Position numbers and translations under genes: made by a program. From an uncultured Poribacteria bacterium (GTDB lineage Bacteria > Poribacteria > WGA-4E > WGA-3G): a stretch of DNA of 64,000 nt. The notes below the pieces were generated by a model. The model was given only the letters and a program-made list of their open reading frames with translations, was not told where the DNA came from and made no database searches. This document shows, one piece after another, positions 57,268 through 64,000 of the stretch. Each line of letters opens with the position of its first letter. Positions within the stretch are counted from its first letter, which is position 1. The stretch is from positions 3,296,001 to 3,360,000 of the forward strand of contig CATQHZ020000001.1 of the NCBI GenBank assembly GCA_958296135.2. Reading direction: 5' to 3'.

Positions 57268-58241
57268 TTACCTTTTCTTTACGATGAGGAGTTCGTGAGC
57301 GTGCTTGACGTGCCCGGTGCCATTCTCAATCCGATTCTTGCCAATGCGGGTTTCGCCCTGCCCTAAGGTATACTGCCATTCAACCTCAATGATTCGGAAA
57401 TCGGCATACCAGCCTCGGATAGTCTTGCAATCGTTGTAGGAAAGGACGAAGCCGCCATTATGCGCGTGGAGCAAGTCGCGTAGCAGTTCATGCTTGAAGC
57501 CGTTATGGTGCACTGGGAAATTCCGTTGTGGATAAATCCCCTTGAACATTTTCCCTTCATCAAGGTAGTAAGGCGGATCGCAGTAGAGGAATTCACCCGG
57601 ATGCAGAGGAAGAGTTTCCTCAAAACTTCCGTGCCGCACAGATAAAAAAGGACACTGGAAATGACGTACCGTTTCCACCGCACGGGCATATTTCCCCGGC
57701 GACTCGTAAATCTTCGACATCCAGCCGAGGAAGCCGGGACCGTAGGAGAGATTGTGATTGAACCAATAATGCGCCCCCAATTCTAACGCATCCTCAATGC
57801 GGTTTTCGTCCTTCCAATGCGCTTTGAGTCTACGCTTAATCTCAGCGTATTGCGTCTTCGTGGGGGCCACCGTTCAAGTCTCTCCGCAAGTTGTTTACCT
57901 GACGTAAGTTGCACATGCCAATAGTTGACGAGGATATCAAAGATGTCGTAGGCTTGCACCCGTATACCGAGTTCTGCAGCGCAGGCAATCTCAACCGCGC
58001 CACCGCCCATAAACGGTGAAACTAGTGTCTCTAAGCCATCGGGCATTTGCTCCACGACATGCCCAACGCCAAGACTTTTCCCACCAGCATAACGCAGCGG
58101 CAGCCCTTTGTAACGCGCGTATTTATACCTTCCCCGGCTTCTCAGCGACTCTAAAAATAGCACTCTCAAAGAAGTGCCAAAAAAGTCCGGATAGATATCC
58201 TTTATCTGAGCAGGACTTGCGGAATAACGTATCACGTGCAA
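57268..58241 (-). pseudogene. Dam-type (D12 class) DNA adenine methyltransferase, frameshifted at ~57865
   Basis: LRYAGGKS and SPFMGGG in one frame; YCDPPY and LSYND in the next frame. Confidence 0.85.
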
Positions 58242-58344: not shown

Positions 58345-59472
58345 CTACGCAGTGCCTTCATCGGCTGAATCGTTGTGGCGAAAGAGTTTATCCCAAAAAC
58401 CGCCATGCTCCGTTTGAGAAGCTTCACCGAGAGACTCCGCAAACTCTTCTAACTTCTTGCGCTGCGTCTGGGTGAGGTGCCGGGGGGTTTCAATCTCGAT
58501 GCTGACAACCAGGTCACCGGCAGCCGAGCGTTTGTAGTGCGGAACCCCTTTGCCGGGAATGCGCAACTGCGCGCCATACTGCGTGCCAGCCGGAATCCGC
58601 AACTCCTCGGTGCCATCAATCCCCTCCACCTTAATCTTCCCACCGAGCGTCGCTTGGACGAAGGAAATGCGTGCGGAGGTAACCAGATCGTTTCGCTCGC
58701 GGCGGAAGCGTTCATGCGGGACGACATTGACAACCACAAAAAGATCGCCCGGCGGCGCGCCGTTCGTGCCAGCCTCGCCTTCGCCCCGCAACTGATATTT
58801 GAAACCGGTCTCAACACCTTTGTCAATAGTCAACGGGATGTCACGCTTGACGCGGATGAGGCCCTGCCCATCACAAGCCTGACAAGGTTCCGTAATGATT
58901 TCGCCTTCGCCGCGGCAGCGGGGACAAGTGCGGGACATGGTGAAAAACCCCTGCGATTGGGTTACCTGCCCTCTGCCGTAACATTCAGGACAGCTCTGAA
59001 CGCGCGACCCTTTTTTTGCACCGCTCCCCTCACACGTCGGGCAAGATTCAATTCGCGGCACCTCCAGAGTTACCTCTTTGCCATGGATGACATCTTCAAG
59101 CGTGACATCAAGGTTGTATTGCAAGCTGCGCCCGCGCTTCGGCGAACGATGCGACTCCCTGAAACCACCGAGCAGATCCCCGAAGACATCCCCGAAAATA
59201 TCGTCAAGGTTGACACCAAAGCCCCCGTAATTGCCAACACTTCCTTCCATCCCGGCATGGCCGAACTGGTTGTAACGGCTCCGTTTTTCAGGATGGCTTA
59301 GCACCTCGTACGCCTCGGTGGCCTCCTTGAATTTCTCTTCAGCCTCTTTGTTCCCCGGATTCTTATCCGGGTGATATTTAATCGCGAGCTTCCGGTAAGC
59401 CTTTTTAACCTCGTTTCCATCAGCACTACGGCTGACATCCAGAACCTCGTAATAGTCGCGTTTTTGCGTCAT
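58345..59472 (-). CDS. dnaJ: chaperone DnaJ
   Basis: J domain with HPD, four CxxCxGxG zinc-finger repeats. Confidence 0.97.
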
Positions 59473-59798: not shown

Positions 59799-60485
59799 CT
59801 AATCCGTTTCCGGAGCCTGCTCTGCATTCTCCGCTGGGCCCTGGGAGACGACGACTTGGGAAGCGCGAAGGACGCGAGTGTGCAACTGATACCCGCGCCG
59901 ATATTCCTCAACCACTTTGCCTTCAGGAACCTCATTCGATGGCACTGCAAGGATTGCTTGATGTTGGAGCGGGTCGAACGGTTGCCCAAGTGCCTCAATC
60001 GGCGTGAGCCCGTGGGCGTTGAGAGCATCCAGCAGCTGCTTTTGGACGAGCTGCACGCCTTCGCTGAAGTTAGCAAACTCCGTGTCGGTGTCGTTGGCAC
60101 CGGTCTTTTCAGCGACGCTTTTTATCGCCGCCTCAAGGCTATCCAACACGGGGATAACCCCTTCCAACAGGGCTTCATTGGCGTACTGAAGTTTCCGAAC
60201 CGTTTCGGCTTCCAACCGCTTTTTGGCGTTTTCTGCCTCGGCAGCGGTACGGAGGAGACGCTCGCGCTCTGCTTCATATTGTTCGCGCGCCGATGCTTCA
60301 ACCGCCTCCAACTGCTCCCTATACTCCGATTGGAGAGCCTCAAGTTCTGCTACCACAGCTTCAAGCGTGCGTTCTTGCGGTGCTGCACAAGTCTCTTCTT
60401 GCGTTGTCTCCAGTTCGTCCTCACACGCCGGAGCCGCTGGTGTATCAACTACAATTTCTATGGGAACCTCTTTAACGTCAGACAT
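59799..60485 (-). CDS. grpE: nucleotide exchange factor GrpE
   Basis: AEAENAKKR, FDPLQHQA, GYQLHTRVLRASQVVVS. Confidence 0.95.
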   Translation of the reverse strand: MSDVKEVPIEIVVDTPAAPACEDELETTQEETCAAPQERTLEAVVAELEALQSEYREQLEAVEASAREQYEAERERLLRTAAEAENAKKRLEAETVRKLQYANEALLEGVIPVLDSLEAAIKSVAEKTGANDTDTEFANFSEGVQLVQKQLLDALNAHGLTPIEALGQPFDPLQHQAILAVPSNEVPEGKVVEEYRRGYQLHTRVLRASQVVVSQGPAENAEQAPETD

Positions 60486-60570: not shown

Positions 60571-61317
60571 TTAGCCATGAACAGCATCGGCGAACTGTTT
60601 CATCAGTTCAAACGAGCCATTTTCTTCAAGCACATTGCCTGTGACGATGAAATCCGCCCCGGCGTTGACTTTTTTCTCGGCGAGCACTGGCGTGCGGATG
60701 CCGCCGCCGACAATCAATGGAATGTTGATGTACGCTTTCACTGCGGCAATCATCGCATCCGAGACAGCGTGCTTCGCGCCACTGCCAGCCTCCAAGTAGA
60801 CGAGCTTCATACCGAGGTATTGGGCGGCTAACGCGTGCGGGCCCGCGATATCCGGCTTATTGCGCGGAATCGGCATCGTGCCACTCACGAATTCAACAGC
60901 AGTTCGGTTGCCGCCTTCAATCAACAAGTAGCCGGTGGGGATGGGTTCTAGCGCGTAGCGTTGAATCCACGGCGCGGCTTTCACCTGTTCCCCGATGAGA
61001 TAGTTCGGGTTTCTGCCACTGATGAGGCTCATGTAGAGAATCGCATCGGCGTGTGCAGTGAGGTGCATTGAGTCCCCCGGGAAAAGCACGATAGGGAGGC
61101 GTGTCGCGTTTTTCAACGTTTCCGCAATCGGATGCAAGGCGGTTGTTAAAAAACTGCCGCCGAGCAGAATCGCATCTGCACCTGCCTGTTCAACGTCGCA
61201 TGCAAGCCGGGCGCACGTCGCAACCTCACACTGCTCCGGATCGAGCAGGACAAGATAGCCAGCACGATGTCTATTCAGGACCTCGTGGAAGTGGTTCAGA
61301 ACCCAATGTGAAGCCAA
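60571..61317 (-). CDS. geranylgeranylglyceryl phosphate synthase (PcrB/GGGPS, group II-like)
   Basis: LLDPE, GADAILLGGS, LFPG, SLISGRNPNYLIGEQ, YLEAGSGA, VGGGIR, TGN. Confidence 0.9.
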   Translation of the reverse strand: MASHWVLNHFHEVLNRHRAGYLVLLDPEQCEVATCARLACDVEQAGADAILLGGSFLTTALHPIAETLKNATRLPIVLFPGDSMHLTAHADAILYMSLISGRNPNYLIGEQVKAAPWIQRYALEPIPTGYLLIEGGNRTAVEFVSGTMPIPRNKPDIAGPHALAAQYLGMKLVYLEAGSGAKHAVSDAMIAAVKAYINIPLIVGGGIRTPVLAEKKVNAGADFIVTGNVLEENGSFELMKQFADAVHG

Positions 61318-61408
61318 ATGGAAACGTTCCTTCTCAATAAAGCGTTTACGGATTTGCGCGTGTTTCCCGCGCGTGTCCTAATTATTTTACCACATTTATG
61401 CCCATTTG

Positions 61409-62662
61409 TCAAATTATTCGCCGCGCCAATTCGTAGAGCAAAACGCCTGCAGCGACACCGACATTGAGCGACGCTTGGCTTTGCCTTCTTCCCGCTGCTG
61501 TTAGCACGCCAGGTGCCATCGGGATACCTACCAAGTCCGTGCAACCTTCGCGTGCCTGCACAGAAATACCGGTATGTTCATTGCCCACGACAACAGCGGT
61601 AGGCGGTTCAAGTTCTAGCGTGTAGAGGGATTTCTCGGTGTGCGCAGTCGCGCCTAGCACAGTCCAACCCGCCTTTTGAAGTGCTTCAAGTGCAGGTGCG
61701 GTATCCGCCGAGAAAAAGAGGGGAAAGCGGCCCACCGCGCCGCGCGCAGCACGAATGCAGTTTTTATGAAAAGGACTTGCGCCTTCGCCACACAGCAAAA
61801 CAGCAGAAACTCCTGCCGCGTCCGCTGTCCGCAGCGTCATTCCTAAATTATCAGGATTCCCGATATTTTCGGCGATGAGCAGCGTGCAACTCGGACTAAA
61901 GTGAAAATTTAGTTCATTAGATGCTGCCAAAAACCGGCGATAGTTGAGATGCACCGAAGCCACTACCAGCGGCACAGGACGAGTTGTGGTAACCGAACCC
62001 ATGATGCCATCGCTGACTTGGTAGTAGGCGAGATTCTCCGCATGCGCCCGCGTGAGAAGGCTTTTCCCTTCTGATGTCGCAAGGAAACCGGCAGTGTAGA
62101 GAATCGTTTCCACCGGCAATCCGTCTGCCACGGCGCGCGCAACGATGCGCGCCCCTTCTATCACAAATTGCTTGTGCGCAAGTTTGCCCTTTAAGGCGGT
62201 TAATTTCCGAAACTGTGAAGCGATTGCATCCTTGCGCCTCGAAATGGTTCGCCGTTCCGCCTTGTTCTCACTGCCCCGTTTGACACCCCGATAAAAGCAC
62301 CCTGCATCGGTTTGGACAAATTCACCCACTAGCACTTCCCTCAGCGCGTTGTCCATCCATGTCTCTGGGACATGAAACATGCCGATACTTTGCCGTGGAT
62401 AAGCGAGCAGAAGTTCGCGCAACGCCCTTTCCGTTGTGGCGGTGATGGACACTTCGTAGTCAACCCTTTCATTTTCCGCGTCCGTTTCGTGTGTCGTGCC
62501 CGTTGGCCACATTAGCATCACACCATCGATTTTTTGCCATCCAGAAACACTCACCTCATAGGAGCAATCCCCTGAGCGCGATGCCTTAAAACGGGAAACT
62601 GCATCGGAAACCTCGGTGCCTTCTCTCTCCAAAAAAGCGATGATGTTTTCGTAGATGTCCAT
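61409..62662 (-). CDS. TrmH/SpoU-family RNA methyltransferase with an extra N-terminal domain
   Basis: IEGARIV, NPDNLGMTLRTADAAG, GNEHTG, SLNVGVAAG. Confidence 0.88.
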   Translation of the reverse strand: MDIYENIIAFLEREGTEVSDAVSRFKASRSGDCSYEVSVSGWQKIDGVMLMWPTGTTHETDAENERVDYEVSITATTERALRELLLAYPRQSIGMFHVPETWMDNALREVLVGEFVQTDAGCFYRGVKRGSENKAERRTISRRKDAIASQFRKLTALKGKLAHKQFVIEGARIVARAVADGLPVETILYTAGFLATSEGKSLLTRAHAENLAYYQVSDGIMGSVTTTRPVPLVVASVHLNYRRFLAASNELNFHFSPSCTLLIAENIGNPDNLGMTLRTADAAGVSAVLLCGEGASPFHKNCIRAARGAVGRFPLFFSADTAPALEALQKAGWTVLGATAHTEKSLYTLELEPPTAVVVGNEHTGISVQAREGCTDLVGIPMAPGVLTAAGRRQSQASLNVGVAAGVLLYELARRII

Positions 62663-62664
62663 AA

Positions 62665-63540
62665 TTACCAAAACGTTCCGAGATAAATCGCCCCAAGCCC
62701 GATAAATATGTCCCACTTCATCCAGCGTTGAATGAAGGCGCAGTTTTCCTTAGCGGCATCTCTCCACAACCGAATGCCCAAGTAGAGGATAACCAGATCT
62801 ACGCCGAGCACAACAACCACTAAATAGATGCCTGAATACCACCCGAATAGGTACGGGATAGGACTCAACAAGATGACTACGGCTAAGCAGACTAACGCGA
62901 TTTTCACGGCGAGTCGCGGGTTGAGAATCGCCAGCGTCTTAACACCGTTTTTCAAGTCGCCCTCCGTGTCCTCGAGGTCTTTCACAATTTCGCGCGGCAA
63001 TGTGAACAAGAACGCGAACATTGCAGGAACAAGCGTGCCTGCCACCGATTCTATCGCTACGCCGCCGGCAATGAAGGTTAACCCTGTCAATCCGCTGACA
63101 ACTAGATTGCCAATGAACGGCGTGCGTTTCAGCCAGAGCGCGTAGGTGAAAACGGCGATGGAGACGAGCATCGCGATGCCGAGTGCGTAAACGTTGATGC
63201 ACGCGCCAAGCCCGATGCCAAGAGCGATGAGGCATATCGCAAAAATCAGCGCGGCGCGCCTGCGAATGCGCCCGGAAGGGAGCGGCCGCTGGGCCCTGTT
63301 GATGCAATCGATGTCGTAATCACAGTAATCGTTTATCGCGTTTCCAGCGGAGAGCAAGACAAGTGCCGAGACAGAGACAAGCCAGATTCGGATATCAATG
63401 AGGTTCTCCCACCTGTCTGCGCTAGCAAACATGCCACCGAGCCACGCGGAAACAAAAGCGATGACACCATTCAGTGGGCGCGCCAACTCAACATAATTTT
63501 TCGTCTGTCGCAATGCGTTCGATAAAGTAGATTGGTGCAA
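62665..63540 (-). CDS. UbiA prenyltransferase, digeranylgeranylglyceryl phosphate synthase (DGGGPS)-like
   Basis: ELARP.N, GNAINDYCDYDIDCINRAQRPLPSG, LKRTPFIGN, REIVKDLEDTEGD, MKW. Confidence 0.82.
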   Translation of the reverse strand: MHQSTLSNALRQTKNYVELARPLNGVIAFVSAWLGGMFASADRWENLIDIRIWLVSVSALVLLSAGNAINDYCDYDIDCINRAQRPLPSGRIRRRAALIFAICLIALGIGLGACINVYALGIAMLVSIAVFTYALWLKRTPFIGNLVVSGLTGLTFIAGGVAIESVAGTLVPAMFAFLFTLPREIVKDLEDTEGDLKNGVKTLAILNPRLAVKIALVCLAVVILLSPIPYLFGWYSGIYLVVVVLGVDLVILYLGIRLWRDAAKENCAFIQRWMKWDIFIGLGAIYLGTFW

Positions 63541-63638
63541 TCACATGTTCCTGCGTAAACCGTCATTACGGTGCCGGTCAAACTGCCGATGCAGCTCGCC
63601 TCTCTTGAGAGGCGTAACGGTGTCAATGACTACGTTCT
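63497..63638 (-). repeat. family A element with an insertion in its hairpin loop; supplies the TTG start of the UbiA gene
   Basis: ACGTAGTCATTGAC[insert]GTAATGACGGTTTACG…TTGCACCAA…TCGAACGCATTGCGACAGACGAAAAA. Confidence 0.8.
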
Positions 63639-63668
63639 TGATGCTACGGACAGCTCCTCGCGCGCCGC

Positions 63669-64000
63669 TTAATCTTTGCCCTCCAACGCTCGGATTTTCG
63701 CCTCCAATTCCACCACTCGTTTCTGGAGTTTGGTAAATTCAGGGAGAAGTTCGGGCAATTTTCGGGTGGCGGCGTGGATGCGCAATTCTTGTTGATGAGG
63801 CCGCGCGGGAAACCCGGAGAGATGACTGCCGGGCGGCATATCCTTCGTCACCGCGGATTTCGCGTAAACGACACTGTCATCACCGAGGGTGAGATGCCCG
63901 GCCGCCCCTGCATGTCCCGCGATGTTCACCCGGTTACCGATGATAGTGCTCCCCGCGATGCCGGCTTGCGCGGCGATGCAACAATCTTCTCCGATAACCA
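63669..64000 (-). CDS. lpxD: UDP-3-O-acylglucosamine N-acyltransferase (partial, C-terminal part)
   Basis: Hexapeptide repeats VIGEDCCIAAQAGIAGSTIIG…GHLTLGD…SGFPARP and C-terminal coiled coil. Confidence 0.9.
   Translation of the reverse strand, partial: VIGEDCCIAAQAGIAGSTIIGNRVNIAGHAGAAGHLTLGDDSVVYAKSAVTKDMPPGSHLSGFPARPHQQELRIHAATRKLPELLPEFTKLQKRVVELEAKIRALEGKD

Follow-up and report, generated by a model that had tools for sequence, protein, structure and literature searches.

Does a bacterium outside the Fibrobacteres–Chlorobi–Bacteroidetes (FCB) group encode both enzymes that form the ether bonds of archaeol, and do they act one after the other? The question is raised by a 64,000-nucleotide (nt) stretch of DNA from an uncultured, sponge-associated Poribacteria bacterium (assembly GCA_958296135.2, contig CATQHZ020000001.1, positions 3,296,001–3,360,000; below, the window). 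Its minus strand carries genes for a soluble enzyme related to geranylgeranylglyceryl phosphate synthase (GGGPS) and for a membrane prenyltransferase of the UbiA superfamily, related to digeranylgeranylglyceryl phosphate (DGGGP) synthase (DGGGPS, also written DGGPS). Bacteria with both enzymes are relevant to the "lipid divide" that separates the domains of life; the case so far comes mainly from FCB-group genomes and one heterologous test, and a second, unrelated phylum would widen its base. An archaeal-type pair in bacteria is already known; new here are the phylum Poribacteria and the gene arrangement. Our answer, at a probability of about 0.68, is that the soluble group II GGGPS and the membrane DGGGPS-type UbiA act in sequence; the family assignments of the two proteins and the joint presence and loss of their genes carry this reading. 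The two genes are as follows.

60571..61317, minus strand: predicted group II GGGPS (PcrB family); PF01884, 160.9 bits.
62665..63540, minus strand: UbiA-superfamily membrane prenyltransferase, predicted DGGGP-synthase type; PF01040, 156.9 bits.

The GGGPS gene encodes 248 amino acids (aa) from a TTG start, with AAGGA about 10 nt upstream of it. The protein scores above the cut-offs (in brackets) of PF01884, 160.9 bits (23.9); TIGR01769, 219.5 (161.55); and NF003198, 286.6 (247), while the heptaprenyl-type model NF003197 gives 25.3 bits against a cut-off of 260. The closest solved chains, both matched at full length, are those of Methanothermobacter thermautotrophicus (4mm1, 184 bits) and Flavobacterium johnsoniae (4jej, 182 bits); the PcrB structure 4naf gives 22.7 bits. 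A preliminary description, made from the window alone, had called this TIM-barrel enzyme a group II GGGPS, and with the curated models passed and the PcrB scores (NF003197, 4naf) very low, that assignment holds; as judged from sequence, it is a group II enzyme and not a PcrB-type (group Ib) heptaprenyl one.

In an alignment of 12 sequences across Poribacteria plus one Zixibacteria sequence, residues G178-S179-G180, G204-G206, V225-T226-G227, Y174, and E176 are invariant or nearly so, and align with the M. thermautotrophicus enzyme (MtGGGPS). The review PMC9385802 describes phosphate-binding loops, conserved Tyr and Glu, and a Thr replacing the Asn of group I, and assigns the roles of a hexamer "aromatic anchor" to W141 and of a proposed chain-length limiter to V86 of the M. 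thermautotrophicus enzyme. Here, the group II threonine is T226, the anchor position holds an aromatic residue, F143, and the limiter position a medium hydrophobic one, L86, so that in these residues and in the full-length match the protein is like 4mm1 and 4jej. It differs from them in belonging to a clade of Poribacteria sequences within the bacterial group. The best 80 loci by GGGPS alignment are all bacterial, 20 of them from Poribacteria; the others (Bacteroidota, Ignavibacteriota, Zixibacteria, Fibrobacterota, Cloacimonadota, and others) are 45–56% identical. In a tree of 84 rows (three archaeal named-genome sequences and one from Thermoplasmata added, locus L205 dropped for its length) bacteria stand apart from archaea with a Shimodaira–Hasegawa-like approximate likelihood ratio (SH-aLRT) of 100, and Poribacteria form one group (87) inside the bacterial one. 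The host is Candidatus Poribacteria, outside the FCB group; in one-genome-per-species collections the nearest GGGPS loci are 19 records labelled Candidatus Poribacteria (65–82% identity), and the next named phylum is Zixibacteria at 50%.

The UbiA protein has 291 aa when read from the TTG at 63540; with the in-frame TTG of codon 10 as its start it would have 282 aa, as most homologues do. Its top three NCBIfam models are PRK12884 (220 bits), PRK12882 (207), and PRK12883 (177), the last two named DGGPS, followed by lower scores for ChlG (84), haem O synthase (68), and 4-hydroxybenzoate prenyltransferase (UbiA; 54). The best PDB match is the DGGGPS of Methanocaldococcus jannaschii (6m31; 135.5 bits, E 2e-38, residues 11–288 of 291); chlorophyll synthase gives 39 bits and UbiA 26 bits. 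Residues D74, D78, D188, D191, and D195 align with D66, D70, D180, D183, and D187 of the M. jannaschii enzyme, whose alanine mutants at these five aspartates lose activity according to the review PMC9385802; together with Y133, they are invariant in all nine Poribacteria sequences compared, down to 35% identity. With K138 also present, both Asp-rich motifs and the Y-x4-K motif are shared with 6m31. The motifs quoted in the preliminary description are exact in the translations, both those of UbiA (NDYCDYDIDCINRAQRPLPSG and REIVKDLEDTEGD) and those of GGGPS (SLISGRNPNYLIGEQ and YLEAGSGA).

The listing of proteins homologous to UbiA (120 listed, all with at least 71% identity) was rejected as the source of a deep tree, and named-genome loci were used instead. 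A scan of named genomes with the UbiA alignment yielded 80 loci, ten of them labelled Poribacteria; those outside the phylum come from FCB-type and allied bacteria (31–42% identity) and, in the same identity range, from Euryarchaeota (Thermococcus, Methanobacteriaceae, Methanosarcinales, Halobacteria). The tree is a quick maximum-likelihood short search without bootstraps, on 83 rows (the 175-aa fragment L138 dropped, three paralogues of the same genome added) and with no chlorophyll or MenA sequences included. It places the window protein in a Poribacteria clade (SH-aLRT 100) within a 40-row bacterial clade (99), which lies among unresolved branches that also hold euryarchaeal DGGPS clades. 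The 80-row set is split (98) from the genome's three paralogues: a quinone enzyme of the MqnP/UbiA type, a haem O synthase, and an odd third UbiA. The preliminary description had named the enzyme as DGGGP-synthase type; grouping with DGGGPS apart from the quinone and haem paralogues, and models and structures that favour DGGGPS over ChlG, bear this out, and we assign it to that type as predicted from these comparisons. The GGGPS and UbiA trees give a like picture, as Villanueva et al. (PMC7852524) described for FCB bacteria.

The third UbiA paralogue (G000:C1:1148291-1149259) has altered Asp-rich motifs, NDYFHCETD and FKDLSRDE; its best model is PRK12884 (131 bits), and it is flanked by a beta-helix-like secreted protein and a sulfatase-like protein.

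How the two genes are placed, and how they come and go together, is seen from their neighbours. The six genes named in the preliminary description, lpxD, UbiA, trmH (SpoU), GGGPS, grpE, and dnaJ, do follow one another in that order on the minus strand, and Pfam and NCBIfam agree on them. Around the pair lie:

63669..64000, minus strand: 3' part of lpxD (UDP-3-O-acylglucosamine N-acyltransferase); TIGR01853, 90.6 bits on the fragment; the gene continues past the window end.
61409..62662, minus strand: SpoU-family RNA 2'-O-methyltransferase (open reading frame, ORF, listed as 61409-62716); PF00588 and PF22435.
61384..61412, minus strand: sigma-70-like promoter match; TTGACA, 17 nt, TAAAAT, with TG.
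59799..60485, minus strand: grpE, syntenic context; PF01025, 143.5 bits.
58345..59472, minus strand: dnaJ, syntenic context; DnaJ, DnaJ_C, and CXXCXGXG domains.

The order bamA-skp-lpxD-UbiA-SpoU-GGGPS-grpE-dnaJ-prmA is kept in 16 of 19 Poribacteria-labelled loci; two exceptions (L025, L027) lack bamA, skp, lpxD, UbiA, and SpoU in the 6 kb upstream of GGGPS, and the third (L031) has no SpoU match. Around UbiA, GGGPS lies within 4 kb in 9/10 Poribacteria loci and in one of the other 70, which is from a Thermoplasmata archaeon, hence in none of the non-poribacterial bacterial loci. Around GGGPS, UbiA lies within 4 kb in 15/20 Poribacteria loci vs 1/60 other bacterial ones, the latter from a Cloacimonadota genome.

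GGGPS occurs in 100 of 121 Poribacteria genomes sampled across the phylum, and UbiA in 101; by the rows listed and the tallies per genus, presence or absence of the two agrees in 120 (the sole mismatch is G103). Both are missing in 13/14 genomes of genus g9, which are 96–99% complete. In five genomes (G028, G029, G065, G075, G078) the genes bamA, skp, lpxD, SpoU, grpE, dnaJ, and prmA follow in order with SpoU intact, and the enzyme genes on either side of SpoU are gone; remnants of GGGPS residues 224–246 in G078, of UbiA residues 254–279 in G075, and of the UbiA C-terminus within a 74-aa ORF in G065 are left. As SpoU is retained between the lost genes, each of these genomes lost GGGPS and UbiA by separate events. 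Joint presence and separate deletions together argue that the two enzymes work together or depend on each other, and the joint loss, which argues for mutual dependence, is the strongest evidence for it here. In Poribacteria the pair is old and keeps a fixed place next to genes for the outer membrane, and several losses have removed both of its members. In a comparison with a relative whose GGGPS is 82% identical, the ratio of nonsynonymous to synonymous substitution (dN/dS) is about 0.07 for GGGPS, 0.11 for UbiA, and 0.14 for SpoU, with dS near saturation; the pair is under strong purifying selection, a sign that the genes matter and not a measure of lipid amount.

At two of the loci without the pair there is an insert. 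In G028 (L329, 7935-9250), two ORFs of 203 and 235 aa, of no obvious family, stand exactly at the UbiA position, and the same insert occurs in G065 (L328, 8513-9853), where its first gene is broken into ORFs of 177 and 80 aa. It may be a small element that displaced the UbiA gene.

The SpoU methyltransferase has 417 aa from the likely ATG at 62662, which lies 2 nt past the UbiA stop. Its N-terminal part of about 150 aa (window 62213–62662) matches no Pfam family, and the best Atlas score for it, 0.84, is in the chance range; it is found in 87/121 Poribacteria genomes, in families f1 and f2 only. A part for SpoU in the lipid module, suggested by the close spacing of its ATG to the UbiA stop, was rejected, as the gene is intact where both enzymes are deleted. 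Being intact after loss of the pair, SpoU is independent of it, and is probably a bystander to the lipid genes.

A number of observations weigh against sequential action. The UbiA score is under all DGGPS equivalog cut-offs (NF009521, 207/296; NF009522, 177.3/353; NF009523, 220.2/269), although these are still its top three models by a wide margin, and the NCBI label of a relative is merely "UbiA family prenyltransferase." Compared with archaeal DGGGPS, it is about 31–40% identical, falls below the same NCBIfam cut-offs, and sits in a separate, bacterial clade. The sigma-70-like site, which matches 11/12 positions and is a match to consensus only, lies in the 91-nt gap that precedes the GGGPS gene; it suggests that a common transcript for the two enzymes is not required. 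Since the genes are neighbours, part of the co-absence in draft genomes could reflect one missing contig; this is excluded for the five loci examined, while G049 and 14 other genomes without the pair were outside that locus check. Further points, on the source of glycerol phosphate and on the finishing enzymes, are added below.

If the two enzymes are not sequential, GGGPS would, like Bacillus PcrB, make a prenylglyceryl phosphate monoether, possibly modified afterwards, and UbiA would prenylate another acceptor. The failure of UbiA at every curated DGGPS cut-off and a possible promoter of GGGPS itself fit such an arrangement, as do the statements in PMC9385802 and PMC7852524 that UbiA enzymes cluster by acceptor and that bacterial homologues were long assumed to have other roles. 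The agreement of the pair in 120/121 genomes and its separate deletion around a retained gene in five are hard to square with it; moreover, UbiA falls together with the archaeal DGGPS sequences, GGGPS gets very low scores from PcrB models, and, given the MqnP/UbiA-type and haem O synthase paralogues, quinone and haem prenylation are already covered. We regard it as distinctly improbable. Compared with the PcrB/AraM system of Bacillus subtilis (the heptaprenylglyceryl phosphate pathway), Poribacteria would be alike in a bacterial use of an ether lipid based on sn-glycerol-1-phosphate (G1P); they differ in that their GGGPS is not PcrB-type and a second prenyltransferase is present.

For the sequential reading, the most likely function of the pair, as predicted from the two protein families, is two-step synthesis of an unsaturated archaeol-type diether phosphate. 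Isoprenoid units would come from the 2-C-methyl-D-erythritol 4-phosphate (MEP) pathway, and a short-chain prenyl diphosphate synthase encoded elsewhere would supply geranylgeranyl diphosphate (GGPP). GGGPS would then attach the first geranylgeranyl chain to glycerol phosphate, the substrate being G1P by family precedent, and UbiA the second, yielding digeranylgeranylglyceryl phosphate, which is the core of archaeol in unsaturated form. The phospholipid could then be completed by bacterial CdsA and head-group enzymes, as reported for the enzymes of Candidatus Cloacimonetes in E. coli. SpoU, lpxD, and grpE are neighbours and not parts of the pathway; grpE is a downstream neighbour outside the lipid function.

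We searched the genome (G000; 5.19 Mb, four contigs, 94.7% complete) for the remaining steps. IspH of the MEP pathway is present, and 3-hydroxy-3-methylglutaryl-CoA reductase was not found in this search. There are two prenyl diphosphate synthases, one of long-chain and one of short-chain type, with all scores below cut-offs; the short-chain one scores best against the models of archaeal IdsA (230 bits) and GGPP synthase (208 bits). The preliminary description had proposed to look for a polyprenyl synthase in the genome; the short-chain type is there, not beside the pair, and the candidates lie 0.5–0.7 Mb away from it.

The source of G1P is less clear and adds to the points against sequential action. 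The candidate (G000:C1:4504624-4505619, 331 aa) is one of five genes like iron-dependent alcohol dehydrogenases (Fe-ADH) and resembles G1P dehydrogenase (G1PDH); on NF002022 it reaches 137.3 bits vs a cut-off of 413, although this is still its best model, glycerol dehydrogenase giving 73.6. Its closest solved chains are 3ce9 (79.6 bits), Pyrobaculum G1PDH (73), AraM (65.5), and M. jannaschii G1PDH (64); glycerol dehydrogenases give 42–64 bits, and one "probable" entry 39. An AlphaFold (AF2) model from a 10-sequence alignment has a predicted local distance difference test (pLDDT) score of 91.5, and its top Foldseek matches are 3ce9, the Pyrobaculum and M. jannaschii G1PDH, and AraM (template modelling score, TM, 0.73–0.77), with glycerol dehydrogenases close (0.64–0.70). 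H232 and H248 are invariant in the ten sequences and D101 is present in nine of them; these three are putative metal ligands.

The gene lies 1.15 Mb from the pair. Its conserved surroundings are unrelated: in 45–49 of 54 Poribacteria loci a PD40-repeat protein stands on one side of it and an M19 dipeptidase on the other, and neither GGGPS nor UbiA lies within 4 kb of it in any of 80 loci. Matches of at least 43% identity occur in 48/121 Poribacteria genomes. They are found in 0/32 genomes of genus g2, where GGGPS is present in 27 and UbiA in 28, and are found in G078 and G049, both without the pair. With distribution and context independent of the pair, the gene was downgraded as a dedicated G1P source; as a candidate source it has, in our view, about one chance in four. 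The search for a G1P dehydrogenase (AraM/EgsA) proposed in the preliminary description thus gave an AraM/G1PDH-like gene that scores below the cut-off and is not co-distributed with the pair. Compared with AraM of B. subtilis, it is similar in its modelled fold and in that its Chloroflexota relatives stand beside sugar-utilisation genes, and differs in its distribution relative to the pair.

Outside Poribacteria, 21 of 26 loci with relatives of this gene are from Chloroflexota. Five were sampled (three Chloroflexota, one Deinococcota, one Latescibacterota), with glycoside-hydrolase-like genes in two and sugar-transporter permeases in one. In L300, L305, and L312 (Chloroflexota, Deinococcota), G1PDH/AraM-like relatives of 41–49% identity follow GH42-like or GHL6 glycoside hydrolases or permeases of sugar ATP-binding cassette (ABC) transporters, a context that hints at a bacterial subfamily tied to sugar use. 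In Bacillus, araM lies in the arabinose operon.

With no settled gene for G1P, one may ask whether the enzymes salvage or break down the lipids of archaea that share the sponge. For FCB bacteria without G1PDH this possibility is mentioned by Coleman et al. (PMC6431249), and the G1P source is open in Cloacimonetes as well, according to PMC7852524 and PMC6431249. In the homologous Cloacimonetes case, the enzymes synthesised lipids in E. coli (PMC7852524). In Poribacteria both enzymes keep full catalytic sets for synthesis. Prenyl transfer that releases diphosphate is not readily reversed, and we find salvage hardly credible.

Among the finishing steps, two absences again speak against the sequential reading and also bear on the amount of lipid. 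No PF01864 match, and hence no CarS, which the preliminary description had thought worth seeking, is found in the 94.7% complete genome; bacterial CdsA is present. According to work cited by Villanueva et al. (PMC7852524), CDP-diacylglycerol synthase and head-group enzymes of E. coli accept the archaeal core. No confident match to a geranylgeranyl reductase was obtained in the genome, the best candidate scoring 131 bits vs a cut-off of 158.8; this flavin adenine dinucleotide (FAD) enzyme was rejected for the role, being below the cut-off and better fitted by a halogenase model. Three of ten ORFs of 420–900 aa with CxxxCxxC were scanned for tetraether synthase (Tes) without a model match, a look too narrow to conclude absence. 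For ordinary lipids there are three PlsC-type acyltransferase domains, one of them inside a 1448-aa ORF at C1:3097911; PlsY is not found in the 94.7% complete genome, and GpsA has a weak match only (27.8 bits). A 2026 preprint reports an ElbD-like alkyl-ether lipid protein for Poribacteria, and the 1448-aa ORF may encode it.

The product of the pair might be no more than a trace or specialised lipid, serving for instance as an anchor or signal or as part of the outer membrane or an inner compartment, and not a bulk membrane lipid; there would then be no real mixed membrane. It is dispensable, being missing in several Poribacteria lineages including 13/14 genomes of genus g9; reductase and CarS were not found; PlsC-type acyltransferases and CdsA are at hand for ordinary lipids; and its place is after bamA-skp-lpxD. 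At the level of the enzymes, however, a trace lipid is compatible with sequential action, and purifying selection is silent on its amount; we consider this outcome improbable. That Poribacteria build isoprenoid glycerol diethers into their membranes beside lipid A and ester or alkyl-ether lipids seems to us unlikely, too. The preliminary description had set an archaeal-type pair beside lpxD and proposed a mixed membrane: the gene identities stand, and the tie to lpxD is positional. The mixed membrane is a potential of the predicted enzymes and not a finding, because CarS and a confident reductase were not found in the genome and the G1PDH-like gene is not co-distributed with the pair.

A working link of the pair to lpxD or outer-membrane assembly was rejected, as conserved position alone was found. 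The window holds the C-terminal 109 aa of lpxD (63669–63998); the whole gene has 357 aa (L003:9669-10742), its full ORF shows LpxD and Hexapep domains, and skp (OmpH) and bamA (POTRA/Omp85) lie upstream. The earlier view of the host as a lipid A producer is reasonable, as LpxC is encoded elsewhere in the genome (match at G000:C1:1369630-1370529). This match sits in a 462-aa open frame, compared with a 268-position domain, and may be a fusion.

Beyond dnaJ follow a split D12 adenine methyltransferase and then prmA. The former, a D12-class N6-adenine DNA methyltransferase (window 57268–58241, minus strand), consists of two overlapping ORFs of 152 and 200 aa that match profile positions 1–74 and 85–252, respectively, and is probably frameshifted. 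It looks like an insertion between dnaJ and prmA specific to the genome of the window, because the dnaJ–prmA gap is about 40–270 nt in most related Poribacteria loci. A search of sequencing runs with the window DNA listed no RNA run; four runs from one sample hold the DNA, and four other listed runs hold next to none of its words.

The closest known system is that of Candidatus Cloacimonetes and other FCB-group bacteria (Villanueva et al., ISME J 2020/21, PMC7852524); expressed in E. coli with no CarS, the Cloacimonetes pair made phosphatidylglycerol (PG)-archaeol. In both systems a bacterial group II GGGPS and a DGGPS-type UbiA, as predicted here, are encoded close together in a genome with bacterial lipid genes, and CarS is missing; both poribacterial enzymes share their bacterial clades with FCB sequences, and the window GGGPS is 47–48% identical to two Cloacimonadota sequences. 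In contrast to Cloacimonetes, the Poribacteria genes are separated by the SpoU methyltransferase gene and follow bamA-skp-lpxD, and in the window genome no prenyl synthase adjoins the pair and no confident reductase was found. Villanueva et al. (PMC7852524) state that, among bacteria, the two genes seemed to be co-localised in Cloacimonetes only; Poribacteria are a second bacterial case of a co-located pair, with one gene in between.

A search of the open literature found no link of Poribacteria to these genes; supplements, which may list the phylum, were outside the search. Two papers contain the phylum name along with a GGGP-type word, and neither relates one to the other. Poribacteria are unnamed in the main texts of Villanueva et al. 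(PMC7852524) and Coleman et al. (PMC6431249), the supplements again being outside the search. In a 2026 preprint about the ether lipids of sponge symbionts, Poribacteria are covered solely with regard to elb, agps, and mss, and the words GGGP, isoprenoid, geranylgeranyl, and UbiA are absent. A table of Yokobori et al., in flattened form, appears to show no G1PDH for Poribacteria.

Sponge Poribacteria are abundant and can be sampled, and include related lineages with and without the pair, so the lipid question becomes testable. If they do build isoprenoid glycerol diethers into their membranes, they would be a natural mixed-membrane organism outside the FCB group, and comparative lipidomics could use the lineages that lost both genes as natural knock-outs. 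Some of the archaeol-type lipid of sponge extracts, which is commonly attributed to archaea, would then be bacterial; the isoprenoid diethers recorded in surveys of sponge lipids are not necessarily all archaeal.

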